A stretch of 64,000 bases of DNA from a virus, in the IMG/VR virus record IMGVR_UViG_3300045912_000789, positions 32,001-96,000 of that record; one strand, given 5' to 3'. Positions within the stretch are counted from its first letter, which is position 1; every line of letters begins with the position of its first letter. A model generated the notes under the pieces. It saw nothing but the letters and a program-made list of their open reading frames with translations. It searched no databases and had not been told where the DNA came from. The translations under genes were made by a program, and so were the position numbers. This document shows positions 1,240 to 57,682 of the stretch, piece by piece.

Positions 1240-1248
1240 GCTTATAGG
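1240..1248 (-). promoter_or_regulatory. Class B motif CCTATAAGC (putative phage early promoter)
   Basis: Motif recurs upstream of at least seven genes; here 14 nt before ATG 1225. Confidence 0.6.
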
Positions 1249-1259
1249 CCGAACCGCGC

Positions 1260-1265
1260 TACCGT
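1260..1265 (+). promoter_or_regulatory. Class A -10 box TACCGT, leaderless
   Basis: Exactly 6 nt before ATG 1272; no SD. Confidence 0.6.
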
Positions 1266-1271
1266 TGGGGC

Positions 1272-4200
1272 ATGGCTGTCGGTCAGCATCTTCGCCTCCG
1301 CCTCTTCATCGAGGGTGTGGAGGTTCCCGTGATCTCCGCGAACATCCAGTCCGCGAAGAACGCCCCGGTCGCGTGCAGCATCCAGATCCCCGCGAACGAC
1401 TACGCCCTCGACTTCCGGCCCCGATCGCTCATCCACCTCTTCATGTACGACATCTACAACGGCGCACCGCCCGAGGAGATGGTCTCGGTGGGCGGGCCCG
1501 GAGTTCGCGTGGTGGACCGGGACGACGGTGTCGACCCCGAGCTGGGGGGCTTGTTCCCGCCCGAGCGCTTCGAGTCGACCACCGAGCAAAATCTCACGGA
1601 CCTGGAGAACGAGAACTACAAGCTGATCTTCGGCGGCGAGGTGGTCGGCATCAACTACTCGAAGTCGCCCACCAGCCGATCGGTCGTGCTCCAGTGCATG
1701 GACTGGTCGAGCTACTGGGACATCGCGTACCAGTACATGGTCAGCGGGATGAGCCTGGGAGGCGGTGGCATCCGGGCGGCGTTCACCGGCGCAGCCACAA
1801 CCGTCTTCAACGACTTCCTCGAAGGATCGGGCGACATCGTCGTGCGTCTGATGGAGACGCCGCCCCGCTCGTACCCCAGCCTGCGTGGGACGCTGCTCGG
1901 AGCCATCACACACATCATCGAGGCGATCGGCGGAACGTACTTCGGCCGGCGCGCGGTGCGTGGAGTGAACGACTTCTTCAGCCTCGCCGAGATGAGGCTG
2001 CACCTGACCCAGATGCTTGGGGCGAACCCGTTCCCCGAGCGGGACGAAGTGCGCCTGATGCGCGCACGGGGTTTCGGCAGCCTGTTCCGCCGCAGCCTGG
2101 CGGGCCTGGGGCGCCTCGTCACGATCCGCCAGGTGCTGCTCGCGCTCCAGCGCTACATCTTTCACGAGATCGTTCCCATCAACGCACCGCGGTACATCCC
2201 GCCGCTCTACGATCCCGCCCTGCCGCGGTACGAGACGCTGGGGATCGAGGAGGACAAGGAGACCCGCCCGCTCGCGCGTGCCGCCCGGACCATCAAGGCG
2301 CGGGCCGAGGAGCTGAAGGAGCGCCAGGAGGCTTCGACAGACACCAGCGCCGCGAGACGTCAGAGCGACCGCCGGGGCGGGCTCCAGGCGGAGATGCGGC
2401 AGCTCAGCCGGACGTGCCAGCGGGCAGCCGCCGCGGCCCGGCGCGTGGGTCTCCAGGGGGGCACGTACACCCGGCTGTCGGACTTCTTCGGGATCCCCGA
2501 GGTCAGCCGGGCGTTCGTCGTCTCGGGCAACAACTTCAACCAGCTCCTCGATGCGACCCGCCGCGGGCAGCGCGCGGACGTGCGGACGTACACCTTCTAC
2601 CCGCCCGGCAGCGACAGCGCGAATACGGTGAACGGGCTGTGCGATCAGATCATCGCGCTGATGCAGCAGGTGATCGAGTCGCGGCACAACCGCCGCATCC
2701 AGCGCACGACGTCGCAGCCCGACCCTCCGCCCCGTCTGATCACCCAGATCTACAGGCCGGACGTCTGGATGGTGGCGCCGCCGCGCTGCAACGTCTTCTT
2801 CCCCGAGCTGTACAGCCAGTTCTCCTACGGCCGGAACTTCCAGCAGGAGGTCACCCGCCTTCTGCTGCGCACGCACAGCGCGTTCTTCGGATCGGACATC
2901 CTCTTCGACGGCTTCTACATGGCGCCGTCGCGCCTCCTCGGCTCGCGTACCGGTCGTCCCATCGGACGAGGCCGGATCGGGGCAGACCCGCCCGACCTCA
3001 GCGATGCGCCGGCGTGGGTCGTGCGGGACATGCTCGACCACGAGCTGTTCACCGGCATCATCCCGGCGTTCGAGCGCATGAGCGATCTGAACCTGCACGC
3101 GCTCCGTGGCGGGTACGCCATGATCAATGGTGTGCGGGTCGGGTACGCGCAGCTCGCGGCCAACCACATCTTCTTCCAGTACCGCTTCCGATCTCGCGAG
3201 CTGATGCTCCAGGGGAAGTTCAATCCCTACGCGGTGCTCGGCTTCCCCACGCTGGTGATCGACAAGTACCTGCCCACCGACCTACTCCGCGAGGGCACGT
3301 ACGATCCCATCCTCGCAGCACGTCTCGCCGAGGCCGTGCGGGAAGGTGAAGGCGAGATCGGTCCCCCGAGCGACGAGCGTACTCGCATCGCGGAGGCGAA
3401 CAACGCGCGCGTGGCCGAGGTGCAGGCGGAGCTGCTCGCCGGACGCCCGAACACCCACTACCTCGGTACCCCCGCCATGATCGTGCACAGCATCGACGCC
3501 AGCAGCGGCGGTTCGACGCAGGTGCAGATGGAGTACGCGCGCACGACGAACGAGCGCACCGAGTTCCTCGGCGACAACGTGGGGCGCAGCGGGCGCACGC
3601 GCCGCACGCGCAACATCCAGCGGACGACCGTCGTCGCGGCTCTGGAGGCCCCGACGGTGGGGTCGCTGGGCTACTACGGCGGCGAGATCCAGGAGGTCAC
3701 GGACGTCACGGACCAGTACGAGCGCCGCTCGCGGCGTCGTTCGACCGACCGCACCGGCAGCAGCACGCGCCACGCGTCGAGCAGCCTGCTCCCCCTCTTC
3801 GTCCCCGACCGCCGCTTCACCGGCCGCTCCCGGCGCGGCACGCGGGTTCCCGTGGGCGTCGAGCAGACCGCCGCGAGCTACGGGCCCGAGGTCGTGGCGC
3901 TCGTCGGCGCAGCCGGCACCTTCGACGCCTCGACGTCGACTGACCGCGAGATCCTGGTCACGTTCCGTGCGTTCCGCATCGTGGAGCAGATCGGAGCCTA
4001 CCGGACCGAGGACGTCGAGCTGCCGCCCGAGGACCTCACGTTCCCGCCGTGGTACGGCGAGCACTACCGGACGAACCGGATCGGCGGCCTCTACGCCTAC
4101 TACTTCGGCACCGGAGCGATCACGGACCCGCTCTTCGTCCTGGAGCCCGGCGCGGACCCCGCGCAGTTCGACGGCACGGCTGCCTCTGAGGCCGCCTCGG

Positions 4201-5919: not shown

Positions 5920-5937
5920 CCTATCAGCAGGTGGAGG
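5920..5937 (+). promoter_or_regulatory. Class B motif plus SD, CCTATCAGCAGGTGGAGG
   Basis: Identical 18-mer on the - strand at 46573..46590; directly upstream of the sigma gene. Confidence 0.7.
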
Positions 5938-5943
5938 CGCCGT

Positions 5944-6774
5944 ATGGCGAACAAGAAGGAAATCGAGAAGGTCGAGAAGTTCATCAAGGATGCCGCCACG
6001 AGCCCGGCGAAGGTCGAGCGTGCGACGCAGCGGTACGGTGAGCTGCGAGGTCGGCGTGGTCAGGAGCTTCAGCTCTGGCACTCCTGGGATCAGAGCGGGC
6101 GGAAGCAGGAGCACCTCGAACCGCTGCTGAAGTCGCTCGATCCGCTCATCCGTTCCGAGACCACGAAGCGCATGCAGGGCCTGGGCGGGTCGATCTCGTC
6201 GCCGGCCCTGAAGAACGAGCTGCGCCGCGCCGCGGTGCGGGCGCTGGAGACGTACGACCCGAAGAAGGGCACCCAGCTCACGACGCACGTCGTGAACAAC
6301 TTCATGCGGATCACGGACTTCGTCGCCGCCAACCGCAACCCGAAGTACATGCCGCGCGAGGACGTCGAGCGCTTCGGGGCGTTCCAGAACGCCAAGCAGG
6401 AGTTCGTCGAGGAGCACGGCCGGGAGCCCACGCACTTCGAGCTGAAGATGAAGCTCCCGACCTGGAGCGATCGTCAGATCAAGAAGATGACCAAGGGCTT
6501 CGGCAGCGAGGCCTTCACGGACATGGGCACCGAGCTGGAGCACGACGTTCAGCACGAGGACCCGATGCAGCGTGTGCGCGGTGCGCTTCACCTGATGCGG
6601 AGCACGCTGACGCCCGAGCAGCAGACGTTCGCCGACATGCACTACCCCGCCGAGGGCGAGCCGCAGAAGTCGGTGTCCGCCATCGCCAAGGCGATGAAGA
6701 TCCCGGAGCACAAGGCCTACCGGATCAAGAAGAAGGTCGAGGCGAAGCTCGCCCCGATCATCAAGGGGCAGTGA
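5944..6774 (+). CDS. Phage-encoded sigma70-family RNA polymerase sigma factor (FliA/SigB-like architecture)
   Basis: Region 2-like ALETYDPKKGTQLTTHV, region 3-like EEHGREPTHFEL, region 4 HTH LTPEQQ...SVSAIAKAMKIPEHKAYRIKKK. Confidence 0.85.
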   Translation: MANKKEIEKVEKFIKDAATSPAKVERATQRYGELRGRRGQELQLWHSWDQSGRKQEHLEPLLKSLDPLIRSETTKRMQGLGGSISSPALKNELRRAAVRALETYDPKKGTQLTTHVVNNFMRITDFVAANRNPKYMPREDVERFGAFQNAKQEFVEEHGREPTHFELKMKLPTWSDRQIKKMTKGFGSEAFTDMGTELEHDVQHEDPMQRVRGALHLMRSTLTPEQQTFADMHYPAEGEPQKSVSAIAKAMKIPEHKAYRIKKKVEAKLAPIIKGQ

Positions 6775-7971: not shown

Positions 7972-7977
7972 TAGACT
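7972..7977 (+). promoter_or_regulatory. Class A -10 box TAGACT, leaderless
   Basis: 6 nt before ATG 7984. Confidence 0.65.
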
Positions 7978-7983
7978 CCTCCC

Positions 7984-8946
7984 ATGCCCGTCGTCACGCA
8001 GCAGCCCGTGCAGCTCTCGTACTTCGTCGCCGACCCGGCGACGGAGCTGCTGACGTACAACCGGCTGCGCTTCTGGCGAAGCCGCACCGGACAGGACGGA
8101 CTCTACGAGCCGGCGACGGCCGCTGCGGCAGCACCGGCAGAGTTGGAGGGCACTTCCGAGACCCCGCACCAGCTCAACGGCAAGACCCTGAGCTTCCGGG
8201 TAAGCGGCGTGACCCAGGTCGACGTGCTCTTCGCGGATCCCGACCCGGTCACGACCACGCAGGTCGTGGCGGCCATCACCGGCGCGACGGCGCTGGTCGT
8301 GGCCACCGACGTGGGCGGGAAGCTGCACCTCGCGTCCGTGGCGACCGGCAGCGGCGCCAGCATCGAGATCCTGGAGTGCGACGCGGCCCCGTTCCTCGGC
8401 TTCGATGTGGGGCAGGCGGCTGTCGGGCTCGACGCCGACCTCGTGCTCACCGCCGGCGTCCACGAGTACCTCTACACCGATCAGAACAGCTCGGTGGACT
8501 TCTGGTACCGGGTCGAGCTGCTCCACAGCGTGACTGCGCAGACGAAGGGGGCCGGCCCGGCGTTCCAGGCAGGGCCGATCGGAACGCCCAACAGCACCAA
8601 GATCTGGTGCTACATCCGGCTGACCGATCTGGGAGGCCGCCCGCTGGCCGGGCGGATCGTGACTCTTCTGAACCCGTTCATCCCGAACACCGTGGTGTCG
8701 GGAGCGTCTCGGTGGGGGATCTTCCGCCACTACGCGCAGATGACCACCGACAGCGAGGGCTACGCTCAGATCCGAGCGCTGCGTGGGATGCAGGTCGACG
8801 TGGCGGTCGACGGCACGAACTTCATCCGACGCCTCGGCATCCCCACCACGGGCGACAGCGTCGACCTGCTCGACCCGTCGCTGGTGGTCGAGGACGAGTT
8901 CGGCATCCAGGAGCCGAACATCGACTTCGCGGTGAGGACGTCGTGA
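7984..8946 (+). CDS. Virion structural protein with C-terminal beta-sandwich (carboxypeptidase-regulatory-like) domain
   Basis: Beta-rich. GRPLAG...TTDSEGYAQIRALRG domain is also present in 10149..11063. Confidence 0.6.
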   Translation: MPVVTQQPVQLSYFVADPATELLTYNRLRFWRSRTGQDGLYEPATAAAAAPAELEGTSETPHQLNGKTLSFRVSGVTQVDVLFADPDPVTTTQVVAAITGATALVVATDVGGKLHLASVATGSGASIEILECDAAPFLGFDVGQAAVGLDADLVLTAGVHEYLYTDQNSSVDFWYRVELLHSVTAQTKGAGPAFQAGPIGTPNSTKIWCYIRLTDLGGRPLAGRIVTLLNPFIPNTVVSGASRWGIFRHYAQMTTDSEGYAQIRALRGMQVDVAVDGTNFIRRLGIPTTGDSVDLLDPSLVVEDEFGIQEPNIDFAVRTS

Positions 8947-9330: not shown

Positions 9331-10059
9331 TCAGCCCTCGTCGCCGCCGCTCAGGATCCGACGCAGCTCGGGCGGCAGGTCGCCGCCGCCCAGCTCCATC
9401 ACCTGGATGTCGAGGCCCGGGATGCCGCTCCGACCACGCCCGCGGCGACCGCCGGGCGGCCCGCCGAGGAGCATCTCGAAGAGGGCGCCGAGGACCCCGC
9501 CGGCCGACGGCCCGCCGAGCCCCATCTCGTTGGCGAGGTCGAGCAGGTTGCGCGCGGTCTCCCGCACGCCCTGCTTGTCCTCCTCGGTCTCGTCCCGGTT
9601 GAGGCTCTTGGTGAGGAAGTGATCGGTCGCCGGCCCGGGCATCCGACCGCGGTACTCGGCCGAGCGGATCTTGTCGGCCGACTCGACGCTCGCGCAGAGC
9701 GCACACGAGCAGCCCGGCGTGAGCCGCTCGGTGTGCATCCGCTCGCGCTCGTCGCCGGCGGCGACGAAGGCGCGCACGAGCTTCTCGCGCTCCGGCTTCA
9801 TCAGCCGGACGAAGAAGCTCTTGATCGACTCGCCCTCCGCCGAGCGCGAGTCGATGCCGTGGATCATCAGCGCGACCTCGACCTTCGCCGAGAAGTCGTC
9901 GGTCTTCCGCGCGTCGCTGAGCGGCAGCATCACGAGCGTCTTCATGAAGTCGCCGAAGGTCGCGTACCGCAGCGCCTTGGCGGAGAGGGCCTCGTTGTCC
10001 GCGCGCAGCTTCTGGTTCTCCTCGCGAAGCCGCTGCATCTCGATGTTCGTCGTGTTCAT
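9331..10059 (-). CDS. Hypothetical protein (242 aa) with CxCxxC motif
   Basis: SD GAGGAG; class B motif upstream; inserted against the structural strand. Confidence 0.7.
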   Translation of the reverse strand: MNTTNIEMQRLREENQKLRADNEALSAKALRYATFGDFMKTLVMLPLSDARKTDDFSAKVEVALMIHGIDSRSAEGESIKSFFVRLMKPEREKLVRAFVAAGDERERMHTERLTPGCSCALCASVESADKIRSAEYRGRMPGPATDHFLTKSLNRDETEEDKQGVRETARNLLDLANEMGLGGPSAGGVLGALFEMLLGGPPGGRRGRGRSGIPGLDIQVMELGGGDLPPELRRILSGGDEG

Positions 10060-10105
10060 GTGGGTGCTCTCCTCGTGTGTTCGGTGGGCCGGAGCCCGTT
10101 CACTG

Positions 10106-10114
10106 GCTTATAGG
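10106..10114 (-). promoter_or_regulatory. Class B motif CCTATAAGC inside a 9-bp inverted repeat (10090-10098/10120-10128)
   Basis: Same 9-mer as at 1240..1248. Confidence 0.6.
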
Positions 10115-10136
10115 GGCACCGGGCTCCGATTTCGTG

Positions 10137-10142
10137 TAGGAT
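10137..10142 (+). promoter_or_regulatory. Class A -10 box TAGGAT, leaderless
   Basis: 6 nt before ATG 10149. Confidence 0.65.
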
Positions 10143-10148
10143 TCCGGC

Positions 10149-11063
10149 ATGGCTCTGGAGACAGTCGAGATCACGGTTCAGGACGACCAGATCGTGCCGG
10201 CGCTGGTCGACGGCGTCGTCGTCCGGGTGTTCGACGTCACGGGGACCTCGCTGATCACCGAGGGGACCACCGGCGTGGTGCTTCCGGGGAAAGTCCAGTT
10301 CACGCTGGACGGCAACAACCCGGCGATCCGGTACCAGCTCCGGTTCTACATCAACGGTGGCTCGATCCCGTCTCCCCAGTACATCGACGTCTTCTCGCCC
10401 CCGGCAGCCGCGCCCACCGGCGCGAACAACTTCCTGATCACGGCGAGCCTCTTCACGCTGCCCACGGCGACCAACCCCCGGCTCTGCCGCGCCTCCGGGT
10501 ACATCTGGGGGCCGAACGGTCGCCCGAAGCTCGGGATCGACATCGCCTTCATCCCGATGTTCACGCCTCTGGTGGTCGACGGGATCGGCATCCTGGGCGA
10601 GCGCGTGAACATCAAGAGCGACAAGAACGGCTTCTTCCAGGTCGATCTGATCCGAGACGGGAAGTACGAAGCCGTCGTCGAGTCGCACGAGAATGTCACC
10701 AGGTGCGTGGTCGTGCCCGACCGTTCCTCGATCAACATCATGCACCTGCTCTTCCCCATCATCGTCGACGTGGACTTCGGCGTGGTCAGCCCCGTCGCCG
10801 TCCCCCTCGGAGGGATCATCACCCTCACACCGCAGATCACCGCCAGCAACTTCCAGGTACTGGAAGGGACAGCCGTGGAGGACGTACAGTACGCGGTGGA
10901 CGACCCCAGCGTGGTCGGGCTCACCATCAACCAAGGCACGATCGTTCTCAATGGACTCTCCGCAGGCAGCACATCCCTTCGTGTCACCCGCAAGGACACG
11001 TCGATCGTCTACATCCCCGATCCCGGCATCGATGGAGCGGTCGTTCCGATCACGGTCGCCTAG
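10149..11063 (+). CDS. Virion structural protein with beta-sandwich and C-terminal Ig-like (Big_2-like) domain
   Basis: C-terminus VQYAVDDPSVV...LNGLSAGSTSLRVT is Ig-like; shares a domain with 7984..8946. Confidence 0.65.
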   Translation: MALETVEITVQDDQIVPALVDGVVVRVFDVTGTSLITEGTTGVVLPGKVQFTLDGNNPAIRYQLRFYINGGSIPSPQYIDVFSPPAAAPTGANNFLITASLFTLPTATNPRLCRASGYIWGPNGRPKLGIDIAFIPMFTPLVVDGIGILGERVNIKSDKNGFFQVDLIRDGKYEAVVESHENVTRCVVVPDRSSINIMHLLFPIIVDVDFGVVSPVAVPLGGIITLTPQITASNFQVLEGTAVEDVQYAVDDPSVVGLTINQGTIVLNGLSAGSTSLRVTRKDTSIVYIPDPGIDGAVVPITVA

Positions 11064-14061: not shown

Positions 14062-14067
14062 TAGAGT
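14062..14067 (+). promoter_or_regulatory. Class A -10 box TAGAGT, leaderless
   Basis: 6 nt before GTG 14074. Confidence 0.6.
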
Positions 14068-14073
14068 TCGGGG

Positions 14074-15055: not shown

Positions 15056-15061
15056 CCCCGC

Positions 15062-28791: not shown

Positions 28792-28813
28792 GTGTTCGGA
28801 TTCTCCTTCTACT

Positions 28814-28822
28814 GCTCATAGG
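28814..28822 (-). promoter_or_regulatory. Class B motif CCTATGAGC
   Basis: Followed by AG and SD AAGGAG before ATG 28791. Confidence 0.6.
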
Positions 28823-33440: not shown

Positions 33441-33481
33441 GTGGTCTCCACGGCCGTGCCCGGGGAAGGTCCCGAGCACGG

Positions 33482-33490
33482 CCTGATAGG
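33482..33490 (-). promoter_or_regulatory. Class B motif variant CCTATCAGG
   Basis: Directly after the recA stop, upstream of the Hjc-like gene. Confidence 0.5.
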
Positions 33491-37229: not shown

Positions 37230-37232
37230 CGG

Positions 37233-43970: not shown

Positions 43971-43975
43971 CGACC

Positions 43976-44479: not shown

Positions 44480-44490
44480 GTTCGGTCCTC

Positions 44491-45888
44491 TCAGATCTTC
44501 ATGGTCGTGTACGGGATCTTGCCGCCCTTGTGGGCGGGCCAGTGGCTCAAGAGCCAGCGGATCTTGCCACAGAGCGCAGCGAGCTGCTTGATGTACTTGT
44601 CCTCGAAGACGATCACCATCGGGTGCTTCTTGCCGTAGTACTTCCGGAGCACCCGACCCATCGTCTGTTGGAGCACGCCCTTCTTCGCGAACGGCTCGAC
44701 GAGGAACAGCGTGTCGAGCATCGGCTTGTTCAGCGCCTGCTTGCCCAGCGTCATGATGGCGATGACGGGGTTGCACTCCCTGATACGCCGTCTGCGCTCC
44801 TTTCCTTTCACGTCGCCGTTCACCACGCCGGCGTTGGGGAAACGAGCGCCCAGGATCTCGGTCATCTCCTTGCTGTGCGCGAGCACGAGCACCTGACGGT
44901 CCGAGTCGAGGGCGGCCTGGATGTCCTTCACGATGCGATCGGTGCGGCCGTCCTTGTTGGTGCGCGCGATGAAGCCGTACGTCATCCCGAAGTGGAACTT
45001 GTTCGTCTTGTCGTGCGTGTTCTCGTGGACGACCTTGTCGGCGAGGTTGAGGGTCGTCGGGAGCTGGCGGAAGACGAAGTCAGGACGCAGGTCCGGTGTG
45101 AGGTACGTGTAGACCACCTCGCCGATCGTGTATCGGAGCAAGGTGTCGAAGCCGTCCTCGCGATCCGGGGTCGCGCTGAGCCCCCATCGCCTGCCGTGGA
45201 ACGGCGGGATCGCGTTGTTGAAGTACGGAGCGCCCATCACGTGCGCCTCGTCGGAGATGATGACCCCGAAGTGGTGCAGCATCTCGGGAGGCAGGCGGTC
45301 CTCGTCGGCACGCTTCGCCAGGGTGTTGACCTGGGCGATCGTGATCGCCTTCTTCCAGTTGAACTTCCCGCCGCCGACGTACCCGATGTCCTTCGAGTCG
45401 ATGCCGAGGAAGTCCTCGATCTCTTCCATCCACTGCTCGGCCAGGCCCTCGTCCGTGACCGTGATGAGGATCGGTACTCCGAGCTGGGCGGCGCTGTGTA
45501 GGCCCACCACCGTCTTCCCCGCACCGCACCGCAGGCAAAGAATGCCGTCATGCGTGGCGAGCAGAGCCGCGCTCCCTCGCCGCTGGTAGTCCTTCTCGGG
45601 CTCCTTGGCGTCGAGGACGACGCGACTGGTGAAGCTCACCTTCGGGAACGATCGCACGCGTGCGTCGTAGATCTTGAAGGGCAGCTTCGACAACGTCTCC
45701 ATGCGCAGGTAGTTGCGGGGGACGCGGAAGTGGTGAGGCTCGTCCCTCCACGCTTCGATCGCTTCGTTGTTGCGACCGACGTAGGTGAAGGTCGACTCCA
45801 CCTGCGCCTGCGCGACGTGCGTCTTCGGGAGCCAGAGCCACGAGTCGATGTACCCGACGCCGGGTTCGCGCTTGTAGAACGTCGTCAT
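44491..45888 (-). CDS. Superfamily 2 DNA helicase (UvsW/XPB/ResIII-like)
   Basis: CGAGKT, DEAH, LSATPDREDG and QTMGRVLR motifs. Confidence 0.9.
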   Translation of the reverse strand: MTTFYKREPGVGYIDSWLWLPKTHVAQAQVESTFTYVGRNNEAIEAWRDEPHHFRVPRNYLRMETLSKLPFKIYDARVRSFPKVSFTSRVVLDAKEPEKDYQRRGSAALLATHDGILCLRCGAGKTVVGLHSAAQLGVPILITVTDEGLAEQWMEEIEDFLGIDSKDIGYVGGGKFNWKKAITIAQVNTLAKRADEDRLPPEMLHHFGVIISDEAHVMGAPYFNNAIPPFHGRRWGLSATPDREDGFDTLLRYTIGEVVYTYLTPDLRPDFVFRQLPTTLNLADKVVHENTHDKTNKFHFGMTYGFIARTNKDGRTDRIVKDIQAALDSDRQVLVLAHSKEMTEILGARFPNAGVVNGDVKGKERRRRIRECNPVIAIMTLGKQALNKPMLDTLFLVEPFAKKGVLQQTMGRVLRKYYGKKHPMVIVFEDKYIKQLAALCGKIRWLLSHWPAHKGGKIPYTTMKI

Positions 45889-45897
45889 GATAGAGGT

Positions 45898-45917
45898 GGG
45901 GCGGCTTTCGCCGCCCC
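45898..45917 (-). terminator. GAAA-tetraloop hairpin between co-oriented genes
   Basis: GGGGCGGC-GAAA-GCCGCCCC; no U tract. Confidence 0.4.
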
Positions 45918-45920
45918 CGA

Positions 45921-46568
45921 TCACTTCCTTCGTCCGAAGAGGTCGACGGTGCGAGAGTAGTCGTAGACGTGCCAGCCGGTCGAGGCGATCCAGCCTTGAG
46001 CGACGTTCTTGAAGAGGCGGCCGAGAACGGACTCCTCCTCGTGGGGCAGGAACGTGGGCGAGACGCCTCCGCTGTGCGAGGGCATCGGCGCAGCATAGGG
46101 CGTCTGCATCGCCACCGGCCACTCCACCGGCGGCTGCACCGGGTACGGCAGGGGAGCCGGCACCTGGAACGGGGTGGGCAGCACGGCACCGGGGCGAGGC
46201 GGGCCGTCTGCTTTCGGGATCGTGGTGGGCGCGGTGCCCCAGGCACCCCAGCCCTTCAGGTGGTCGGCCAGGTTGGGCGTTCGGCCGAGGAGCTGGCTGC
46301 CGTTTCCTCTGTCGCCGAAGGGCTTGGGTTCGTTCGTGTGGACGGGGAGCGATCTACGATCGCTCGTCATGGACTTCGCGCGGATCGTGGCCGCGACGCA
46401 TTCCGCCTTCGACTTGCACTCGTTGTAGTACTCGCCCTTGTACCAGCCTCCGTTGCACATGTTCGCGGTCGAGCTGCTCCCGGGCGTCTCGTACTCGGCC
46501 CAGGACGTGCAGTTCTTCGGGCTTCCAGTCGGACCGAGCAGGGTGAGCCCGGTCTGGGGTCGCTGCAT
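45921..46568 (-). CDS. Hypothetical protein with Cys-rich N-terminus and Pro-rich linker (215 aa)
   Basis: First gene of the replication block; class B motif plus SD upstream. Confidence 0.7.
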   Translation of the reverse strand: MQRPQTGLTLLGPTGSPKNCTSWAEYETPGSSSTANMCNGGWYKGEYYNECKSKAECVAATIRAKSMTSDRRSLPVHTNEPKPFGDRGNGSQLLGRTPNLADHLKGWGAWGTAPTTIPKADGPPRPGAVLPTPFQVPAPLPYPVQPPVEWPVAMQTPYAAPMPSHSGGVSPTFLPHEEESVLGRLFKNVAQGWIASTGWHVYDYSRTVDLFGRRK

Positions 46569-46572: not shown

Positions 46573-46590
46573 CCTCCACCTGCTGATAGG
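46573..46590 (-). promoter_or_regulatory. Class B motif plus SD, CCTATCAGCAGGTGGAGG
   Basis: Exact match to 5920..5937 (+). Confidence 0.7.
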
Positions 46591-46595
46591 CTCGT

Positions 46596-46625
46596 TTGAC
46601 CGCTTTCCCCTCTCCGAGATACGCT
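46596..46625 (+). promoter_or_regulatory. Class A promoter TTGACC-N18-TACGCT, leaderless
   Basis: -10 box ends 6 nt before ATG 46632. Confidence 0.7.
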
Positions 46626-46631
46626 TCGGGC

Positions 46632-48206
46632 ATGCGAATCGCCGGGATCGTGCTCGACCTCTACGACGATCCGAAGGGTGTCGTCCTTCGGAACAAGCTC
46701 GCGTCGTCCGACCGTCAACTGCCGCCGAAGCTCGCTTCGGCTCGCGTCCTCAGCGCCGAAGAGCTGGAGCGCCTGCCGGACCGGCTCTTCGCCATGGTCG
46801 CGACCAACGGCGACGAGGTCGTCCGCAAGTACGCGATGCACGACGAGGCACACCTCGTCCTGTCGATGATCTACTTCGACGAGGCCGGGCACCTCCTTCC
46901 TCCCGAGGTGCAGCAGAAGGTCGCGGCGAACCTGATCAATGGCTGCTCGTGGTATGCGATGGATCCGCCCGAGGCGCTGGTGAAGCGCGCGATGATCGGC
47001 GGAGCCCTCACGGCGCTCACCGCGGGCATGGGCGTCATGGACATGGCGTCGAAGGCGCGCGAGGGGGCACAGCAGGGCCGGGAGCGCATGGAGGCGTTCC
47101 GTCAGGCGCAAGCGAGCGGCACGAAGACCTCGTCGGGCCGGGAGATCCAGCTCTCGCTGGATCAGGACTCCGCGATGCAGCGCGGCGAAGGCCCCGAAGG
47201 CGGTCACATCTGGGACGCCTTCTCGCACTTCTCCGATCTCGAAGCCACGCACCGCAAGCTCGATGCCCAGCTCGCGAAGCGCGACCAGCCGGATCCGGTG
47301 CTCGGCGGGCACCCCCACCGCCACAAGAAGGCCGATCTCGTCGGGACCGAGGCGATGCCGCAGGCGACCCTGCGGTCGGGGAGCGGCCGGCCGTCGCCGA
47401 CCTCGCGCCTCAACCTCCCGATGAAGACGGCGGCGGGGAAGATCGCCGCGGTGATGGTCCCCGAGGGCTGGGTTCACGCCGGCGACATCACACGGGCCGA
47501 GGCTCCGGTGACGGTGAAGAAGGCGAGCCACACGCACTTCGCCCTTCCCCACCTCCAGCGCTACCCGATCGACAGCGCCGCCCTCGTCACGAAGGCGGCG
47601 TCCTATTTCGACGAGCACCTCTTCGACTTCCCGCTCACCGAGCGACGCGTGTTCGCGCAGTCGGTCGTGTCGCGCGCCGACGAGCTGGGGGTGAAGGTCG
47701 CCGGGCGCGTCCTCGACTACGCCGGCGAGGGCTACGGCCCGAACCTCGTGCCCGAGCTGCACGCCCGCATCCACCAGTTCGAGGGGACGGGTCACGAGGC
47801 GGTCTACGAGCTGCTGCTGGAGAAGCGCGCCGAGGTCGATCCGATGATCATGGCGGAGATGCTCCGCGAGGCCGACGAGGAGACCGGCGCGTCCCGCTCG
47901 TACGGCCGGCCGGGCGTCGGGCTGCTCGATCCGTACGCGGCCGTCTACGGTGGCGCGAAGGTCGCGGCCAAGAAGCCGAAGGAAGAGGAGACGTACTCCT
48001 GGAACGAGGGAGGCGACTACGTCTCGGGCATGCAGCTCATGGCCCTGGCGAAGCAGGGGCTCAAGCTCAACGAGATGTTCGGCGCGGGGTTCGCCGACGA
48101 GTTCCAGAAGGACCCGATCGGGGTCTTCAAGAGCATGCCGAGCCCCCAGAAGGTGGTACTCTCGCGGCTCGCGGGCGACAGCAACGCCGGCACGTTCAGG
48201 GTCTGA
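46632..48206 (+). CDS. Putative head-associated/morphogenesis protein (524 aa) with repeated K-x-A motifs
   Basis: First gene of the operon ending in the portal; two similar FA...KY/RYP segments. Confidence 0.6.
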   Translation: MRIAGIVLDLYDDPKGVVLRNKLASSDRQLPPKLASARVLSAEELERLPDRLFAMVATNGDEVVRKYAMHDEAHLVLSMIYFDEAGHLLPPEVQQKVAANLINGCSWYAMDPPEALVKRAMIGGALTALTAGMGVMDMASKAREGAQQGRERMEAFRQAQASGTKTSSGREIQLSLDQDSAMQRGEGPEGGHIWDAFSHFSDLEATHRKLDAQLAKRDQPDPVLGGHPHRHKKADLVGTEAMPQATLRSGSGRPSPTSRLNLPMKTAAGKIAAVMVPEGWVHAGDITRAEAPVTVKKASHTHFALPHLQRYPIDSAALVTKAASYFDEHLFDFPLTERRVFAQSVVSRADELGVKVAGRVLDYAGEGYGPNLVPELHARIHQFEGTGHEAVYELLLEKRAEVDPMIMAEMLREADEETGASRSYGRPGVGLLDPYAAVYGGAKVAAKKPKEEETYSWNEGGDYVSGMQLMALAKQGLKLNEMFGAGFADEFQKDPIGVFKSMPSPQKVVLSRLAGDSNAGTFRV

Positions 48207-53155: not shown

Positions 53156-53182
53156 CGGGCGAAGCCCGGGGCTGTCCCCGGG
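53156..53182. terminator. Overlapping GC hairpins between convergent genes
   Basis: CGGGC-GAA-GCCCG and CCCGGGG-CTGT-CCCCGGG. Confidence 0.35.
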
Positions 53183-54625
53183 CTACGACCACAGCTTGTA
53201 GAGGTTCGGCGGGGTGTAGTCCGCCAGGACCCTCTCGATGTGCTTCCACTGGGGGTGGGAGCGTACGGCGTTCTCGATGTCCGGGCTCGATGCCCCGTGC
53301 GGCTTCAGGAGCGCGAGGAACGAGATCGTGTCGTTCTCCGTGACGTCCCGCAGAGCCTCACGGACCATGATCGATTCACGGTTCATGCGGTGCAGACGGT
53401 CCATCACTGTCTCCCAGTCGGCGATCGACGAGGCGTCGGTGATGCGGAGGTTCTTGGCGGCGCGGTCCGCCTCGTTCTCGATGTTCGGCAGACGCTTCAC
53501 TCGGCCTGGGTGATCGGTGAGGAAGCGCCTGAGCACGACCGGCCCGAGCTTCTCGGCGTACGGCAGAGCCGCAGCCCGCAGCCCAGGCTGCTTCGTCACC
53601 GGCTCGATCAGCATCCAGTCCATCTCGTCGAGGATGTTGATGATCCCGATTGAGCGCACAGCGCGGACCTCGTCGATGGTGGGGGCGCGCCCGATGCGCT
53701 CCAGGATCTCCTTGCGGACGTCCGGAGCGCTCTGGGCGAGCTGGCGCAGGCCCATCACGTAGTGCTCTTCGGAGGTGTCGCTTCGGAAGAGCGCCACCAT
53801 CTTCCGCGACCCTTGGAGATCGTCGAACAGGCTCGCGGCTCTCTGTGGCGTGCAGAGCCGGACGAAGACGGCCATGTCCGCGTAGCGGAACCCGCCCTTC
53901 TTGTCGCCGGTGCACAGCTTGCGGGCCTGGTCGAACGCTGCCTCGCGCATGGCAGGCAGCACGTCGCGGTTCTTCAGGCCCGAGATCATCGCGAACGCTT
54001 CGATGTTCTGGGGCCCGAGCCGCTGCTTCAGGCGGTGGGTGTAGCTCTCGGGCGTGAACGCACCTTCGAGGTAGAACGAGTCGACCTGATCATCCATCGC
54101 GACACGAGGGAGCCGAAGCTCCTCGAAGTCGGGGATGACCCAGGTGCGCGTCATGTTCCGATCCGTGAACCACTTCCCCCAGTCCATCTTGCCGAGGTCG
54201 GGGTCGCGGAAGAACTCCGGCATCTTCGCCGCCGCCCACCGATCCCGCGACTTGATCAGCGCCGCACGCTCTTCGAGGACGAGCTTCGCCGCTTCCTCGT
54301 TCCCGAACACGGCGTAGTACGCGGCGATGTGGAGCGGGTCGCTGAGTCCGTGATCGTCGTCGGTCTTGTACGGGTTCTTGTACCCGATGCCAGCCGTTCG
54401 TAGCCGCACCGGGTTGATCCCGTACGCCACCGCCTTCGACCACGTCACGTCGCTGTCGAGCTGGCTGGTCTCCTGCACGAGGCCCAGGATCTGTCGTAGA
54501 CGATCCCCGGACGCCATGAGCATCGCGTCGAAGGTCCGGTTCTCCGAGACGCTGATGTAGCTGTACCTGAAGAACCGCTCTCGGATGATCTGGTTCGCCA
54601 GGTTCTGGATGAGAGAGATCACCAT
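53183..54625 (-). CDS. Hypothetical protein (480 aa)
   Basis: ATG 54625 overlaps the end of the VWA gene; no recognised motif. Confidence 0.65.
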   Translation of the reverse strand: MVISLIQNLANQIIRERFFRYSYISVSENRTFDAMLMASGDRLRQILGLVQETSQLDSDVTWSKAVAYGINPVRLRTAGIGYKNPYKTDDDHGLSDPLHIAAYYAVFGNEEAAKLVLEERAALIKSRDRWAAAKMPEFFRDPDLGKMDWGKWFTDRNMTRTWVIPDFEELRLPRVAMDDQVDSFYLEGAFTPESYTHRLKQRLGPQNIEAFAMISGLKNRDVLPAMREAAFDQARKLCTGDKKGGFRYADMAVFVRLCTPQRAASLFDDLQGSRKMVALFRSDTSEEHYVMGLRQLAQSAPDVRKEILERIGRAPTIDEVRAVRSIGIINILDEMDWMLIEPVTKQPGLRAAALPYAEKLGPVVLRRFLTDHPGRVKRLPNIENEADRAAKNLRITDASSIADWETVMDRLHRMNRESIMVREALRDVTENDTISFLALLKPHGASSPDIENAVRSHPQWKHIERVLADYTPPNLYKLWS

Positions 54626-55830
54626 GAGACGTCCATGAAGAAGTTGCGCCCCCAGGGCTGAGGTCGACCGTTCTGCGGGATGACCCAGATCGTGTTGGGG
54701 TAGGCCCGCTCGGGCAGGAAGATGTGCCCGTCCGTGAGGCATGCGCAGGCCTTCGGCTTGAACTTGTCGTACAGCTCGAAGACGCCGCGCACCGAGGTGT
54801 GGCTGTGGGCTCCGGAGAGGAACTTCACGTTCTCCAGGATCTTCGCCGGATGCTTGGTCCGATGGACCTCGCGGACCACGGCGTCGAAGGTCACGACGAT
54901 CGTCTCGGTTGCGCGCATTGCTGCGGGCATCACGTTCGAGATGAAGGTCTTCATCAGGGTAGGTCCGACGGAAGCCGAGACGTCGATCGCGAGCAGGAGC
55001 TTCTGTTCCTTCACCGACCGCATCGACGGCAGCGTGATGTCGGGGAAGTATCTCGCCTTCGGAGGGGCGTACGTCGGCATGTCGTAGCCCATGTCGGCGA
55101 GGAGCCGGCCGCGCAGCAGCCTCGACCAGGGCACGCTGCCCTTGATGATCTCTTCGAGTCGGCTGGATACGGTCTTGCCGAACATCTGCTCCAGCGTCTG
55201 GTTCTTCACCTGCTGCTGGATCAGGACGGCCTGCTGAAGCTCCTCGGTGAACTTCCGGCGGAACTCCTCCTCCTCCTGACCGACCGTCGACTTGTTCTCC
55301 GCGTCCCGATCGAACAGGAAGTCGGTGCCCTTCTCGATCTCGCCCTTGCCCTTCGCCGGAGCCGGCATGGGGTGCTTCTTCTCGATGAGGGCGTCGTAGA
55401 TCTGCTCGGCGGTCATGTCCTTCGCCCACTCCGGCGGGATCACGCCGTCCTCCGGCGGCTTCCACTGCTTGCCACCGTCTCGCGAGAGGATGCTGCACGC
55501 CTCTCGGACGACCACGATGTCCGCGGCGATGTTCCAGACCTTGCGGTTGCGATCACCGCATCGGGCGACGTGGTTGAAAAAGATGTGCAGCCACTCGTGG
55601 AGCGTGTCGAACACGCGCCCGTCGTGCTCGTTCTTCTTGATCCACTTCGGGGCGTAGTGCACGCGGCGCCCGTCGGTGGCCATGGTGTCGATCGTGGGGT
55701 CTTCCACGACCTCTACGGCCTCTCCCAGGTAGGAGAGGCCGCAGAGCGGGAAGAACAGCAGCAGGTCCTGGAGGGCCCGCCGGAACATCTCGTAGGCCTC
55801 ACGGTCCTTGATGCTGTTCTCGATGATCAC
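54619..55830 (-). CDS. HExxH metallopeptidase-like plus VWA domain protein (DUF2201-like)
   Basis: TMATDG, HEWLH, WNIAAD; MIDAS DVSAS...LTDG; GTGA coupling. Confidence 0.85.
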   Translation of the reverse strand: MIIENSIKDREAYEMFRRALQDLLLFFPLCGLSYLGEAVEVVEDPTIDTMATDGRRVHYAPKWIKKNEHDGRVFDTLHEWLHIFFNHVARCGDRNRKVWNIAADIVVVREACSILSRDGGKQWKPPEDGVIPPEWAKDMTAEQIYDALIEKKHPMPAPAKGKGEIEKGTDFLFDRDAENKSTVGQEEEEFRRKFTEELQQAVLIQQQVKNQTLEQMFGKTVSSRLEEIIKGSVPWSRLLRGRLLADMGYDMPTYAPPKARYFPDITLPSMRSVKEQKLLLAIDVSASVGPTLMKTFISNVMPAAMRATETIVVTFDAVVREVHRTKHPAKILENVKFLSGAHSHTSVRGVFELYDKFKPKACACLTDGHIFLPERAYPNTIWVIPQNGRPQPWGRNFFMDVSW

Positions 55831-57032
55831 GACGTGGTTCCTTGGTCTGTGGCAGCCGAGATCTTGCTGCCCGGGACGGCCTTCTGCTTCCCGTCGGAGG
55901 TCAGCGTGTACTCGGCGAGCATCTCGTCTCCCGTCTCGGGGAAGTGGCTCGCGATGTTCACGCGGACCTTGTGCTTGAGCTGCACGATCAGCGCGACGCG
56001 CATCTCGCCGTCGAGAGCAGGGACCCACTTCTTCAAGCCCACGTGCTTCTTCTCGACGCCCTTCACGTTGAGGTACTGGGCGACGGCGAAGACCGAAGCG
56101 TACTGCTGCATCCGGCGAGCAGCGGCGTCGCCGGAGAGCTGAAGGTTCCCGCGGTGTAGGATCTCCTGGACGTCGACCTTCTGGATGATCTCGTACCAAG
56201 CCCAGAAGTCGTTCGCGACGTGGTCGCCGACCTTGCGCGCGACGATGCCCTTCCAGTTCTCCTTCGCTCCGTTCTGGAACACGTCCTCCACCGGGTTGAA
56301 GTACTCGAAGAGCTGCTGCGAGGCCTCCCACCACCCGCGCGGGGTGGGGAACCGCGCCACGCCTTCCTTCCACTCGTGGAGGTGGGCCGGCTTGAACTGG
56401 AGGTAGCCGATCACGGCTTCGTGGATCTCGCCGCTGTCGCGGCCGTACTCGGTGAAGCTGAGGATGTCCGGTGCCATCTCGATGATGGTCATGCGGGTCC
56501 GCAGCGACTCCGAGATCTCGTTCGCGTAGATGTCGTCGTCGAGCCTGTTCCCGGCGCCCATGATGAGGGTGCCGGGGTGCAGGTCCTTGTCGCGGAACTT
56601 GCGGTTCGCGGTGACGCCGAGCAGGGCGCCCTGCACGACCGGCGGAGCCTTGTCGAGGTCGTCGAAGAAGAGGAAGCCCGGCTGGATGCACGCCATGGCG
56701 GCGTAGCGGTTCAGCACCCACTCCATGTACGCGCCCCGCGCGCCGGCCTTCTCCGACTCGGTGCCGTTCTGCATCAGCCACCGGATCATGCCGGGAACGG
56801 GCACCCCCGACACGTCCGTGGCGTCGCTGTTCTCGCCGCAGTTGATCGCGAGGAGCGTGAGCGAGTAGTGCTCACAGGCGCGACGAGCGATGGCGGTCTT
56901 GCCGCCGCCCACCGGCCCGAGGAGCAGCGGGTTGTTGAGCGGGTGTTCGACGCCCTTCTGGATCAGCTTCGTCTGCATCTCCAGCTCGCGGCGTACCAAG
57001 ATCTCGGCCGGCTTGAACCCGTACGTCGTCAT
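55827..57032 (-). CDS. MoxR-like AAA+ ATPase
   Basis: Walker A GPVGGGKT, Walker B FLFFDDLDK, GAGNR, arginine finger ESLRTR, FPTPRGW. Confidence 0.85.
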   Translation of the reverse strand: MTTYGFKPAEILVRRELEMQTKLIQKGVEHPLNNPLLLGPVGGGKTAIARRACEHYSLTLLAINCGENSDATDVSGVPVPGMIRWLMQNGTESEKAGARGAYMEWVLNRYAAMACIQPGFLFFDDLDKAPPVVQGALLGVTANRKFRDKDLHPGTLIMGAGNRLDDDIYANEISESLRTRMTIIEMAPDILSFTEYGRDSGEIHEAVIGYLQFKPAHLHEWKEGVARFPTPRGWWEASQQLFEYFNPVEDVFQNGAKENWKGIVARKVGDHVANDFWAWYEIIQKVDVQEILHRGNLQLSGDAAARRMQQYASVFAVAQYLNVKGVEKKHVGLKKWVPALDGEMRVALIVQLKHKVRVNIASHFPETGDEMLAEYTLTSDGKQKAVPGSKISAATDQGTTS

Positions 57033-57412
57033 TCGTCCTCCTCGTCTTCCTCTTCTTCGTCTTCGTCTTCGTCGTCTTCGGCTTCCTCGGCGTACATCGC
57101 CTGTTCGACGAGATCCGTGTAGCACTGCTCGTGCGCGTACTTCGTGACTGTCTCGTCCGTGACGAAGCCGAGCTGGTTGTTCGGCAGCTTCACGATCTGG
57201 AGCTTGGCGTCCGGGTCCGGCACGAACATCGGGACGTCGAACTCTCGGCTCGGGAAGATCATCCCCGGGATCATCATGATGACGGGGGTGCCCACCCCGA
57301 CGTTCTCTTCCCCGCAGAGATCGCACGGGGCGGTGATGTCGTCGAAGCCCTCGAAGTTGTTCGGGGGCTCCGCTTCGGCTTCCATCTGCTCTCTGCTGAT
57401 CTTGTCCTTCAT
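57029..57412 (-). CDS. Acidic hypothetical protein with CxxC...HxxC (127 aa)
   Basis: CDLC...HEQC; poly-D/E tail; ATGA coupling. Confidence 0.65.
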   Translation of the reverse strand: MKDKISREQMEAEAEPPNNFEGFDDITAPCDLCGEENVGVGTPVIMMIPGMIFPSREFDVPMFVPDPDAKLQIVKLPNNQLGFVTDETVTKYAHEQCYTDLVEQAMYAEEAEDDEDEDEEEEDEEDE

Positions 57413-57520
57413 TCAGCCTCCGATGAGCCATCTCCAGAACGGGCTGTTTGTCACGGCGTCGACCACACCGAGGGCGAAGCCAGCGGCGAACGACCAGAAC
57501 ACGACCGAGAAGAGGCTCAC
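57413..57520 (-). CDS. Small membrane peptide (35 aa)
   Basis: Not in the ORF track. MSLFSVVFWSFAAGFALGVVDAVTNSPFWRWLIGG; GTGA coupling upstream and stop abutting the next ATG. Confidence 0.55.
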   Translation of the reverse strand: MSLFSVVFWSFAAGFALGVVDAVTNSPFWRWLIGG

Positions 57521-57657
57521 CCGGGTTCCTCCGAGAGGCCCTCGATGGACTTCTCCAGCGCCTCGTTCAGGTCGTTCTCGAACCTGGTCAGGCTGTCGTC
57601 GTGCTCGTACTGGTCCTGGTCTTCGGCTTCCTTCGTCTGTTCGTTGGGATCGTGCAT
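57517..57657 (-). CDS. Small acidic protein (46 aa)
   Basis: SD GGAGG and class B motif upstream of ATG 57657. Confidence 0.55.
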   Translation of the reverse strand: MHDPNEQTKEAEDQDQYEHDDSLTRFENDLNEALEKSIEGLSEEPG

Positions 57658-57673
57658 CTGGTCCTCCACGCCT

Positions 57674-57682
57674 GCTGATAGC
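57674..57682 (-). promoter_or_regulatory. Class B motif GCTATCAGC(AGG)
   Basis: Shares CTATCAGCAGG with the sites at 5920 and 46590. Confidence 0.65.

Follow-up and report, generated by a model that had tools for sequence, protein, structure and literature searches.

A CTATVAG element as a probable phage-specific promoter in an uncultured phage with its own RNA polymerase and sigma factor

From what signal, and by which enzyme, are the non-structural genes of a phage transcribed when that phage encodes both an RNA polymerase (RNAP) and a sigma factor? The question is raised by a short motif, (C/G)CTAT(A/C/G)AG(C/G), which an earlier note on this DNA had listed at seven sites and proposed as a promoter for the phage RNAP. 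The DNA analysed (the window) is a stretch of 64,000 nt, positions 32001-96000 of the 171.9-kb genome of an uncultured phage. A literature search for the motif, or for a promoter of this phage family, turned up no relevant publication. The phage's tmRNA hints at a tag of proteobacterial type; a tblastn search with PolA gave no clue to the host, and megablast of 20 kb returned only a trivial 40-bp match.

Distribution of the motif

All seven 9-mers are real, at the positions and on the strands reported, against 1.81 expected in the window, and none of 100 shuffles reached seven. Over the whole genome the 9-mer occurs 27 times and its reversed control twice; there are 35 copies of the core CTATVAG and none of CTATTAG. 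The last base of the box is G in all 35 CTATVAG copies, and a single intergenic CTATVA lacks the following G. An eighth, weaker copy had been claimed before dnaB (CCTATTGCGCAG, 41107-41118, - strand); it is unsupported because its PWM score is below 9 bits, where true sites score 13-26, and it was rejected as a motif copy.

Placement is strongly skewed. Intergenic DNA, 6-8% of the genome, holds 29-31 of the 35 CTATVAG copies; with corrected gene calls the figures are 29 copies and 6.1% (binomial P = 7e-30). All 28 copies that could be tested for orientation face the following feature's 5' end (P = 4e-9), and the seven sites of the window are, as had been claimed, all intergenic and on the strand of the downstream gene. 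The G that ends the full element, G(+12), lies 9-18 nt from the start codon at five window sites and 37-42 nt at the other two (Table 1).

The motif was also said to head non-structural genes, and this holds: genes for sigma, tmRNA, topoisomerase II, helicase, UDG, DnaB, primase, PolA, a RecA-like protein, resolvase and an AAA+/VWA pair are headed by it, while terminase, major head protein and tail sheath were recognised in motif-free blocks. Nearly all early, replication and accessory units of the genome have a copy in front of them.

Table 1. Motif copies (class B), host-type promoters (class A) and transcription genes of the window
Feature	Position	Strand	Context
Class B copy CCTATAAGC	1235..1248	-	G(+12) at 1235; heads 178-aa gene 689-1225 and three more - strand genes
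Class B copy CCTATCAGC	5920..5933	+	G(+12) at 5933; abuts upstream gene's stop codon; heads sigma gene, leader 11 nt; orthologues in relatives L034, L035, L036, G001
Class B copy CCTATAAGC	10101..10114	-	Heads 242-aa gene 9331-10059, leader 42 nt
Class B copy CCTATGAGC	28809..28822	-	Heads 131-aa gene 28396-28791
Class B copy CCTATCAGG	33477..33490	-	Abuts RecA-like gene's stop codon; followed by 13-bp hairpin; heads resolvase gene 32841-33440 and trailing - strand block
Class B copy CCTATCAGC	46577..46590	-	Heads replication block 33491-46568 (215 aa, helicase, UDG, DnaB, primase, PolA, RecA-like); orthologues in relatives G001, G003
Class B copy GCTATCAGC	57669..57682	-	Divergent from RNAP gene; heads 46-aa ORF and block 53183-57657 (AAA+ ATPase, DUF2201/VWA proteins), with terminator-like hairpin 53168-53156 beyond the unit's end; retained in relatives G001, G003, L009, L014
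Additional CTATVAG	31094	-	Inside 198-aa gene; outside noted pattern
Additional CTATVAG	38779	-	Inside primase gene (G-Y-Q; G-Y-E in a relative); outside noted pattern
Class A box	1260..1271	+	TACCGT-N6-ATG; leaderless start of 1188-aa gene at 1272; 12 nt from class B copy 1240-1248
Class A box	10137..10148	+	TAGGAT-N6-ATG, 304-aa gene; back to back with class B copy at 10106
Class A promoter	46596..46631	+	TTGACC-N18-TACGCT-N6-ATG, 524-aa gene; back to back with class B copy at 46582
Class A promoter of RNAP gene	57699..57734	+	TTGACC-N18-TAGACT-N6-GTG, leaderless
Phage sigma factor, 276 aa	5944..6774	+	Very divergent sigma70-family, regions 2-4
Fused beta-beta' multisubunit RNAP, 2076 aa	57735..63965	+	Pfam Rpb2_6, E=2e-55

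Promoter geometry and a second, host-type class

The full element can be written as sCTATVAG-N5-G, where a pyrimidine precedes the terminal G and purines come after it. T-A-T is invariant in the box, and a conserved purine lies 6-7 nt past it. G(+12), a downstream continuation that the earlier note had not described, is present in 90 of 100 copies from three genomes. About half of the sites carry an upstream A-rich box (G.CAAAAc) 15-17 nt before the motif, with A at -19 in 46 of 90. A TTGACA-like -35 element at 16-18 nt is not a feature of the class, the A-rich box being found in only about half of the sites and a terminator adjoining many. Nor is the element built like a T7-like promoter, in which about 23 bp are conserved (-17 to +6); here there are about 9 nt plus G(+12). 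From its sequence it looks like a -10-type box with a start site.

The likeness to a housekeeping -10 (TATAAT, or actinobacterial TANNNT) extends to T, A, T, then A in the fifth position, to a distance of about 7 nt to the start, and to an optional upstream box at 15-17 nt. The two differ in the last base, an invariant G here and a near-invariant T there, and in the upstream box, G.CAAAAc here and TTGACA there. The poor fit to TANNNT remarked on earlier is therefore confirmed, the final T being replaced by G in all copies. A host holoenzyme with a housekeeping or alternative sigma, perhaps helped by a phage co-factor, might nevertheless read the motif without involvement of the phage RNAP and sigma, since the first five positions, cTATv(A), are like many bacterial -10 regions and the sigma specificities of an unidentified host cannot be excluded. 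We think this improbable: a housekeeping -10 needs T where G is invariant, a consensus sigma70 promoter scanner flagged none of the motif copies, the corresponding TATAAG box of Salmonella and Vibrio phages (see below) is not the sigma70 consensus there, and this genome also has a distinct class that is clearly host-like.

That second promoter class, class A, has the form TANNNT-N6-start, is leaderless, and precedes the polymerase gene and large + strand blocks. In 45.5-58.5 kb the consensus scanner gives a single sigma70-type hit, the promoter of the RNAP gene, whose -35 is retained in relatives; the RNAP gene is the first of a + strand block that includes terminase. The label "virion genes" for class A blocks is only partly verified, because Pfam and PHROGs gave no match for most of the large proteins headed by class A.

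Other signals near the motif bear on what kind of signal it is. Terminators were restricted to hairpins of -25 kcal/mol or below, the unfiltered finder being too permissive (191 hits). Of the five strongest, four stop no more than about 8 nt from a class B box and one adjoins a class A box, so close that no space is left for another promoter. One motif copy heads the tmRNA gene, so the motif is a transcription signal and not a translation signal. Orthologous copies are kept in relatives G001 and G003 while their flanks diverge.

A role in RNA, as a processing site, a translation enhancer or the SD-occluding arm of a hairpin in the 5' leader, would account for the box adjoining the SD at about half of the sites. 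We give this very little weight. The tmRNA and tRNA genes that the motif heads have no SD, terminators ending just upstream make it unlikely that an upstream transcript carries the motif, and G(+12) is kept in all 13 copies whose SD is more than 25 nt away. RNA structure or SD occlusion as the general cause was rejected, since at six of the seven window sites folding is no better than that of shuffled sequence (z -0.8 to +1.9), and the single strong hairpin among the seven lies downstream of the box. Location, orientation, the copies at tmRNA and tRNA genes, terminators, conservation and -10-like geometry together strongly support the motif as a promoter, the central proposal of the earlier note.

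Related phages and the reader of the box

The genome's sole RNAP gene is the single-copy fused beta-beta' gene, whose product also matches Rpb1 domains 1, 2, 3 and 5 (Pfam). A PF00940 search for a T7-like RNAP found no gene, and control genomes gave no match either. The sigma factor is easily missed: Pfam and PHROGs gave no match for the single sequence, six-frame Sigma70_r2/r4 searches did not detect it, and its single-sequence AF2 model was poor (pLDDT 54). A profile of its family (40 sequences) searched against PDB did find RpoD (E=1.2e-12), and all 60 matches listed are sigma factors; the MSA-based AF2 model reached pLDDT 80, and its best 50 Foldseek matches are all sigma-factor chains or models. 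In the segment that reads the -10, the alignment places H, N and N at the positions of E. coli sigma70 Y430, W433 and W434.

Sigma and RNAP occur together in four of four deposited phages, and every relative examined has both; a search of 50,697 phage records found full-length sigma-family proteins only in the four phages that have the long RNAP matches. All relatives checked carry the motif ahead of the sigma gene, even where sigma identity falls to 41%, and over 57-66% GC. Region 2.3 of sigma is common to the whole family, as is the TAT.AG core, and regions 2.4-3.0 vary where the promoter flank varies, a comparison of two lineages only.

Among the deposited phages are Salmonella phage Arash (OQ632216.1) and Vibrio phages D69, D181 and D148, which share the RNAP (~28% identity) and the sigma family with our phage; Arash encodes beta and beta' separately, whereas they are fused here. 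An unbiased upstream-word search, which recovered CTATVAG in our phage, returned GGTATAAG and GTTATAAG as top words in Arash and D69. TGnTATAAG occurs 18 and 25 times in Arash and D69, against 3 and 2 for controls, and nearly all copies lie on one strand. Exact CTATVAG is not enriched in these two genomes; only the TATAAG core is shared.

The Arash/D69 element resembles ours in its TAT-A-AG core with invariant final G, in a start-like T-G 5-6 nt downstream, and in its co-orientation with non-structural and tRNA genes; in Arash a TATAAG-type box heads a tRNA gene. It often follows a T-run, and one copy lies upstream of the sigma operon. The differences are (i) the flank, TGn as in an extended -10 there and sC here; (ii) position 4, a fixed A there and A, C or G here; and (iii) the start-like G, one base farther there than here (TATAAG-N6-G in Arash). 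On sequence grounds, TGnTATAAG is the equivalent element in Arash and D69, unpublished as a promoter. A 6-nt AT-rich word may, as a separate caution, owe its enrichment ahead of genes to something else.

Which protein reads the box is a matter of inference. We regard the phage sigma, which the earlier note had not linked to the motif, as the more likely direct reader. The fused RNAP, alone or with an unrecognised small subunit, could do so instead, with sigma serving class A or other promoters: the RNAPs of phiKZ and AR9 read short boxes 6 nt before a G start without any sigma70-family factor (PMC5312081), and class A (TTGACC / TANNNT) is closer to typical sigma70-family targets. Such a sigma-independent mode seems improbable to us, as the box, read base by base (T, A, T, x, A, then G), resembles a -10, the TGn of Arash and D69 stands where it would in an extended -10, the family-wide region 2.3 parallels the shared core, and the sigma gene always bears the motif.

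Our main reading, to which we assign a probability of about 0.65, is that class B promoters are read by the phage sigma on the phage beta-beta' RNAP. Start site and reading enzyme remain inferences, because no transcript 5' ends, enzyme assay or host are at hand, and timing is inferred as well. Of the earlier proposal, the promoter itself stands; the phage RNAP as its reader has comparative support only, from the TATAAG-type box in Arash and D69, which have the same RNAP and sigma.

Under this main reading class B would be a phage-specific promoter class with the core sCTATVAG-N5-G, in which TATVAG would act as a -10-like element with G and not T as its last base, and transcription would most likely start at the conserved purine 6-7 nt downstream. 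The mRNAs would then begin almost at the SD, with leaders of 9-18 nt at about half of the sites. About half of the sites would add the A-rich box, and at the rest, directly after a terminator, the box is apparently sufficient. The divergent phage sigma, bound to the single-chain beta-beta' RNAP, would read the box, and the predicted targets of this holoenzyme are the sigma gene itself, replication and recombination genes, tmRNA and about 20 small accessory units. The host-type leaderless promoters, some with a TTGACC -35, would drive the polymerase gene and the large + strand blocks. Class B expression may belong to the early phase, given a virion-borne holoenzyme of the kind suggested by the Arash proteome, or to the middle phase, given a holoenzyme whose first copies depend on host RNAP. 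The class B promoter of the sigma gene itself raises the question of how sigma is first made; injection of the holoenzyme, or read-through from the class A box at 1260, would resolve this bootstrapping problem.

The phage sigma could also appropriate the host core RNAP and redirect it to CTATVAG, leaving the fused RNAP to other promoters or another purpose. To our knowledge all experimentally known phage sigmas work with the host core (e.g. SPO1 gp28 and T4 gp55); the present one is a genuine member of the sigma70 family that has regions 2-4, and the -10-like geometry would suit any sigma-dependent holoenzyme. We judge this unlikely, though the least so of the alternatives. The co-occurrence of sigma and RNAP described above speaks against it, and so does the same box being found in phages of Salmonella, Vibrio and a host of 57-66% GC, whose core enzymes differ. 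So, too, does the detection by mass spectrometry of RNAP beta, beta' and sigma in virion preparations of the distant relative Arash, with the authors' caveat that purified particles could retain proteins that are abundant during infection (PMC10585845).

Known systems and wider meaning

Promoters peculiar to a phage and read by its own polymerase or sigma are already known. T4 late promoters consist of a -10 only, as do many copies here. The T4 late box TATAAATA with gp55, and the SPO1 gp28 and gp33/34 promoters, are cases in which a phage sigma-family protein confers a new -10 specificity, as proposed here; these sigmas work on the host core, the sequences differ, and gp55 is a minimal region-2 protein as against regions 2-4 here.

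The AR9 virion-RNAP early promoter is AAATATATATTAT-(6N)-G+1 (PMC5312081). AR9 and phiKZ share with our phage a short box with a conserved G start at a fixed 5-6 nt, and a phage-encoded beta/beta'-type RNAP that (here only proposed) serves early genes from promoters divergent from those of non-early virion genes. Their enzymes consist of split beta/beta' fragments in two sets (virion and non-virion) with no sigma70-family factor, whereas our phage has one fused RNAP and a sigma70-family protein; their boxes are long and AT-rich, against a 7-nt box in 66% GC DNA.

N4 may share a logic with our phage: a virion-delivered phage RNAP uses special early promoters, and late promoters are of host sigma70 type and are read by the host RNAP (PMC4496689). 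The N4 vRNAP is a single-subunit, T7-like enzyme that reads DNA hairpins, and N4 has a second phage RNAP; for our phage, virion delivery is no more than a possibility.

A wider scheme can be drawn, which we consider possible but hold only tentatively. A virion-carried two-gene machine of RNAP and sigma would read TAT.AG with a T-to-G switch at -7, the base of the -10 element that would be flipped out, in phages of Gammaproteobacteria and of a high-GC host. It would run an inverted N4-like programme, its own enzyme transcribing early and replication genes and host-type leaderless promoters driving the polymerase gene and the other + strand blocks, and at back-to-back promoters the two polymerases would compete.

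The compact promoter would need only two proteins for in vitro work, and the system could yield an orthogonal two-component expression system of bacterial type. If sigma does read the box, the invariant G, where almost all sigma70-family proteins need T, would be a natural case of re-specified -10 recognition. For this large uncharacterised phage family, whose transcription machinery (fused beta-beta' chain and sigma) is unstudied, the motif predicts about 30 transcription units per genome and splits two gene classes without expression data, and the finding reaches cultured phages, Arash of Salmonella and D69 of Vibrio.

Occurrence and anatomy of the motif

The earlier note had reported seven (C/G)CTAT(A/C/G)AG(C/G) 9-mers as a candidate promoter for the phage RNAP, and all seven are present exactly where it placed them, against 1.8 expected in the window, and no shuffle reached seven. 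The viral record whose positions 32001-96000 make up the window (171,909 bp, 66% GC, CheckV 100% complete) has 27 copies of the 9-mer and two of a reversed control; the 7-nt core, CTATVAG, is present in 35 copies, and CTATTAG is absent. Genes were called by a codon model trained on long ORFs, with three calls (the primase ORF, the leaderless start at window 1272 and the tmRNA) corrected before placement statistics were taken. With the corrected calls, 29/35 core copies are intergenic, in a genome whose intergenic share is 6.1% (P = 7e-30), and all 28 copies having a downstream feature are aimed into its 5' end (P = 4e-9). Degenerate variants were nearly absent from a genome scan with a PWM made from the sites, GTATCAG at genome 140011 being one of the few; a "weaker" site once suggested before dnaB scores under threshold.

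Two window copies lie inside genes (Table). The copy in the primase gene is plainly coding, while that at 31094 may be an internal promoter or else merely conserved coding sequence, because its +12 base is G and the relative G001 conserves it. Outside the window, copies at genome 3914 (+) and 22858 (-) lie ~400 nt from the next confidently called gene. A 101-aa ORF opens at the ATG within CCTATGAGC, genome 3916; no Rfam families were found downstream of these two copies.

The motif heads units for the sigma factor, the tmRNA, topoisomerase II, the replication block (SF2 helicase, UDG, DnaB, primase, PolA, RecA-like), a Holliday-junction resolvase and an AAA+ ATPase with a DUF2201/VWA protein, and many small unknown genes, chiefly at 140-172 kb. 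The label "non-structural" given to these genes was apt, because terminase, major head protein and tail sheath are in + strand blocks without a copy. Just beyond the end of the - strand unit headed by the motif at 57674 lies a hairpin resembling a terminator, its tail rich in T (window 53156-53168, -), consistent with a discrete transcription unit of ~4.5 kb.

The element, here class B, extends further than first noticed, to sCTATVAG-N5-G. Counting from the C of CTAT as 0, position -1 is C or G, position 7 mostly C, position 11 mostly pyrimidine and positions 13-16 rich in purines. Position 12 is G in 29/31 intergenic copies, and in 90/100 when two complete relatives are pooled; it is G at 13/13 sites whose Shine-Dalgarno (SD) sequence lies >25 nt further downstream, and is therefore not part of the SD. 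With this pyrimidine-purine step 5-7 nt past it, the T-A-T-x-A-x box is spaced like a -10 element and start site, the start being inferred without 5'-end data. Supposing transcription to start at the conserved G region, leaders are 9-18 nt at 15/28 sites, which would put the 5' ends of these mRNAs almost at the SD. An A-rich box (G.CAAAAc) lies 15-17 nt upstream in about half of the sites, with A at -19 in 46/90. The five strongest hairpin-plus-T-run terminators of the genome (<= -25 kcal/mol) all end within ~8 nt of a promoter box, four before class B and one before class A (below), leaving no room for another promoter.

The evidence points to a signal for transcription rather than one acting at the RNA level. 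One copy, at genome 147677 (+), lies 35 nt ahead of a tmRNA gene (identified by ARAGORN, with the Rfam match spanning the full model), with no ORF and no SD in between. The tmRNA tag is proteobacterial in look, we presume, the host being unresolved; G001 also has a tmRNA (tag ANDSSYAQARAA), and another relative, G003, has a tRNA-Val in its place. Folding of the seven window sites was no better than shuffled sequence in 6/7. The sole strong hairpin (33440-33477, -; z = -3.9; 13 bp, GC-rich) lies downstream of the box, directly past it, ahead of the resolvase gene. Its stem is kept with changed bases at the orthologous G001 site (28144, +), and it may serve either as a stabilising stem-loop at the 5' terminus or in regulation.

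Probable leaderless promoters and divergent junctions

Genes without an SD have TANNNT exactly 6 nt ahead of ATG or GTG (13 cases genome-wide at a spacing of 6; 3, 2 and 0 at 7, 8 and 5), all on the + strand. This class A has a leaderless, host-type architecture. Two cases have a good -35 (TTGACC at N18), among them the RNAP gene, whose -35 is conserved in relatives and whose promoter is the only sigma70-type promoter found by a consensus scanner within 13 kb. Wherever - and + strand blocks diverge in the window, the box facing the former is class B and that facing the latter class A, with 12-40 nt between them. Simultaneous binding by two polymerases would hardly be possible there, so the back-to-back boxes may form a competition switch between them.

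Table. Coordinates of proposed promoter sites and associated genes
Feature	Position	Strand	Details
Class A site	window 1260-1272	+	TANNNT-N6-start
Class A site	window 7972-7984	+	TANNNT-N6-start
Class A site	window 10137-10149	+	TANNNT-N6-start
Class A site	window 14062-14074	+	TANNNT-N6-start
Class A site	window 15050-15062	+	TANNNT-N6-start
Class A site	window 46596-46632	+	TANNNT-N6-start
Class A site, RNAP gene	window 57699-57735	+	TTGACC-N18-TAGACT-N6-GTG
Divergent B/A junctions	window 1240-1265; 10106-10142; 46582-46625; 57674-57728	B on -, A on +	
Overlapping class B and A boxes	genome 30125-30135		GCTGATAGGCT
CTATVAG copy inside primase gene	window 38778-38786 (copy 38779)	-	G-Y-Q
CTATVAG copy inside gene	window 31094-31102	-	TCTATAAGC
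tmRNA, outside window	genome 147719-148127 (L041:11719-12127)	+	tag ANDNSYAPAALAA; Rfam 119.9 bits
Fused beta + beta' RNAP, 2076 aa	window 57735-63965		Pfam Rpb2_6 at 2e-55, Rpb1 domains
Sigma factor, 276 aa	window 5944-6774		family profile vs PDB, predicted structure

The phage sigma factor and the family-wide box

The genome has no RNAP gene besides the fused one. The 276-aa sigma factor escaped detection by Pfam, by PHROGs and by six-frame searching for sigma domains. When 40 homologues were combined in a profile, it hit primary sigma factors of the PDB (RpoD E = 1.2e-12), with collinearity over regions 2.2-4.2, and for an MSA-based model (pLDDT 80) each of the 50 best Foldseek hits is a sigma-factor chain or model. 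E. coli sigma70 handles the -10 element with Y430, W433 and W434, where the phage sigma has H, N and N in the alignment.

The fused RNAP occurs in seven viral contigs (55-83% identity). Two complete relatives (63% and 60.5% GC) have 35 and 30 CTATVAG copies with an identical extended consensus, and orthologous copies are retained despite diverging flanks. Contigs encoding sigma homologues (41-52% identity) have a copy directly ahead of the sigma gene. Among deposited phages, long RNAP matches are limited to Salmonella phage Arash (OQ632216.1) and Vibrio phages D69 (OZ195729.1), D181 and D148, which alone among 50,697 records have full-length members of the sigma family (E = 1.5e-32 in Arash, 1.7e-28 in D69).

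Neither Arash nor D69 shows enrichment of CTATVAG. When 7-mers over-represented ahead of genes were sought without bias, a procedure that recovered CTATVAG in our phage as positive control, the top words were GGTATAAG in Arash and GTTATAAG in D69, extended to tgGTATAAGtAAagTGTAa and tGTTATAAGtAAtaTgtA. TGnTATAAG occurs 18 and 25 times, respectively, versus 3 and 2 for controls, nearly all on one strand; in Arash, one copy heads a tRNA gene and the sole intergenic + strand copy is just upstream of the sigma operon. Of these cultured relatives, Arash has 25 tRNA genes (46.6-62.3 kb) and D69 22 (97.5-101.6 kb), all on the strand of the TATAAG boxes; the high-GC clade has merely a tmRNA or single tRNA. 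Judged from sequence, a TAT-A-AG box with invariant final G and a start-like purine 6-7 nt on is common to the family, across hosts differing greatly in composition, which argues for a phage-encoded reader. Sigma region 2.3 (G-x-x-L-S/T-T-H-V-x-N) is common to all, as is the core of the box. In regions 2.4-3.0 the high-GC clade departs from Arash/D69, and the promoter flank divides the same way (sC vs TGn). This parallel, seen in alignments alone, is suggestive only.

Reading enzyme and timing

We propose that phage sigma, bound to the phage RNAP, recognises the box as a -10-type promoter element, and that class A promoters would be read by host RNAP. Start site, reading enzyme and timing are all inferences, made in the absence of 5'-end data, biochemistry and a known host. 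Three rival readers stay open: the phage sigma on the host core enzyme, which is unlikely, and the phage RNAP without sigma or a host holoenzyme, either of which is very unlikely. In virion preparations of Arash, RNAP beta, beta' and sigma were all identified by mass spectrometry, beta being the most abundant protein; a packaged enzyme transcribing early was the authors' suggestion, with carry-over noted as possible (PMC10585845). The Arash RNAP beta gene is two genes past the portal gene, and the RNAP gene here is first in a + strand block containing terminase. Timing stays open between two programmes. A packaged enzyme would give one akin to N4 or AR9/phiKZ; early promoters of the AR9 virion RNAP, AAATATATATTAT-(6N)-G+1, have the same box-to-start geometry as class B and likewise sit opposite non-early promoters of virion genes (PMC5312081). 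If not packaged, RNAP would first be made by host RNAP and sigma by read-through off the class A promoter at window 1260, with class B a middle class and sigma auto-amplifying. We found no paper on the CTATVAG motif or on any promoter of this phage family, for which the finding would be a phage-specific promoter serving phage-encoded transcription machinery.
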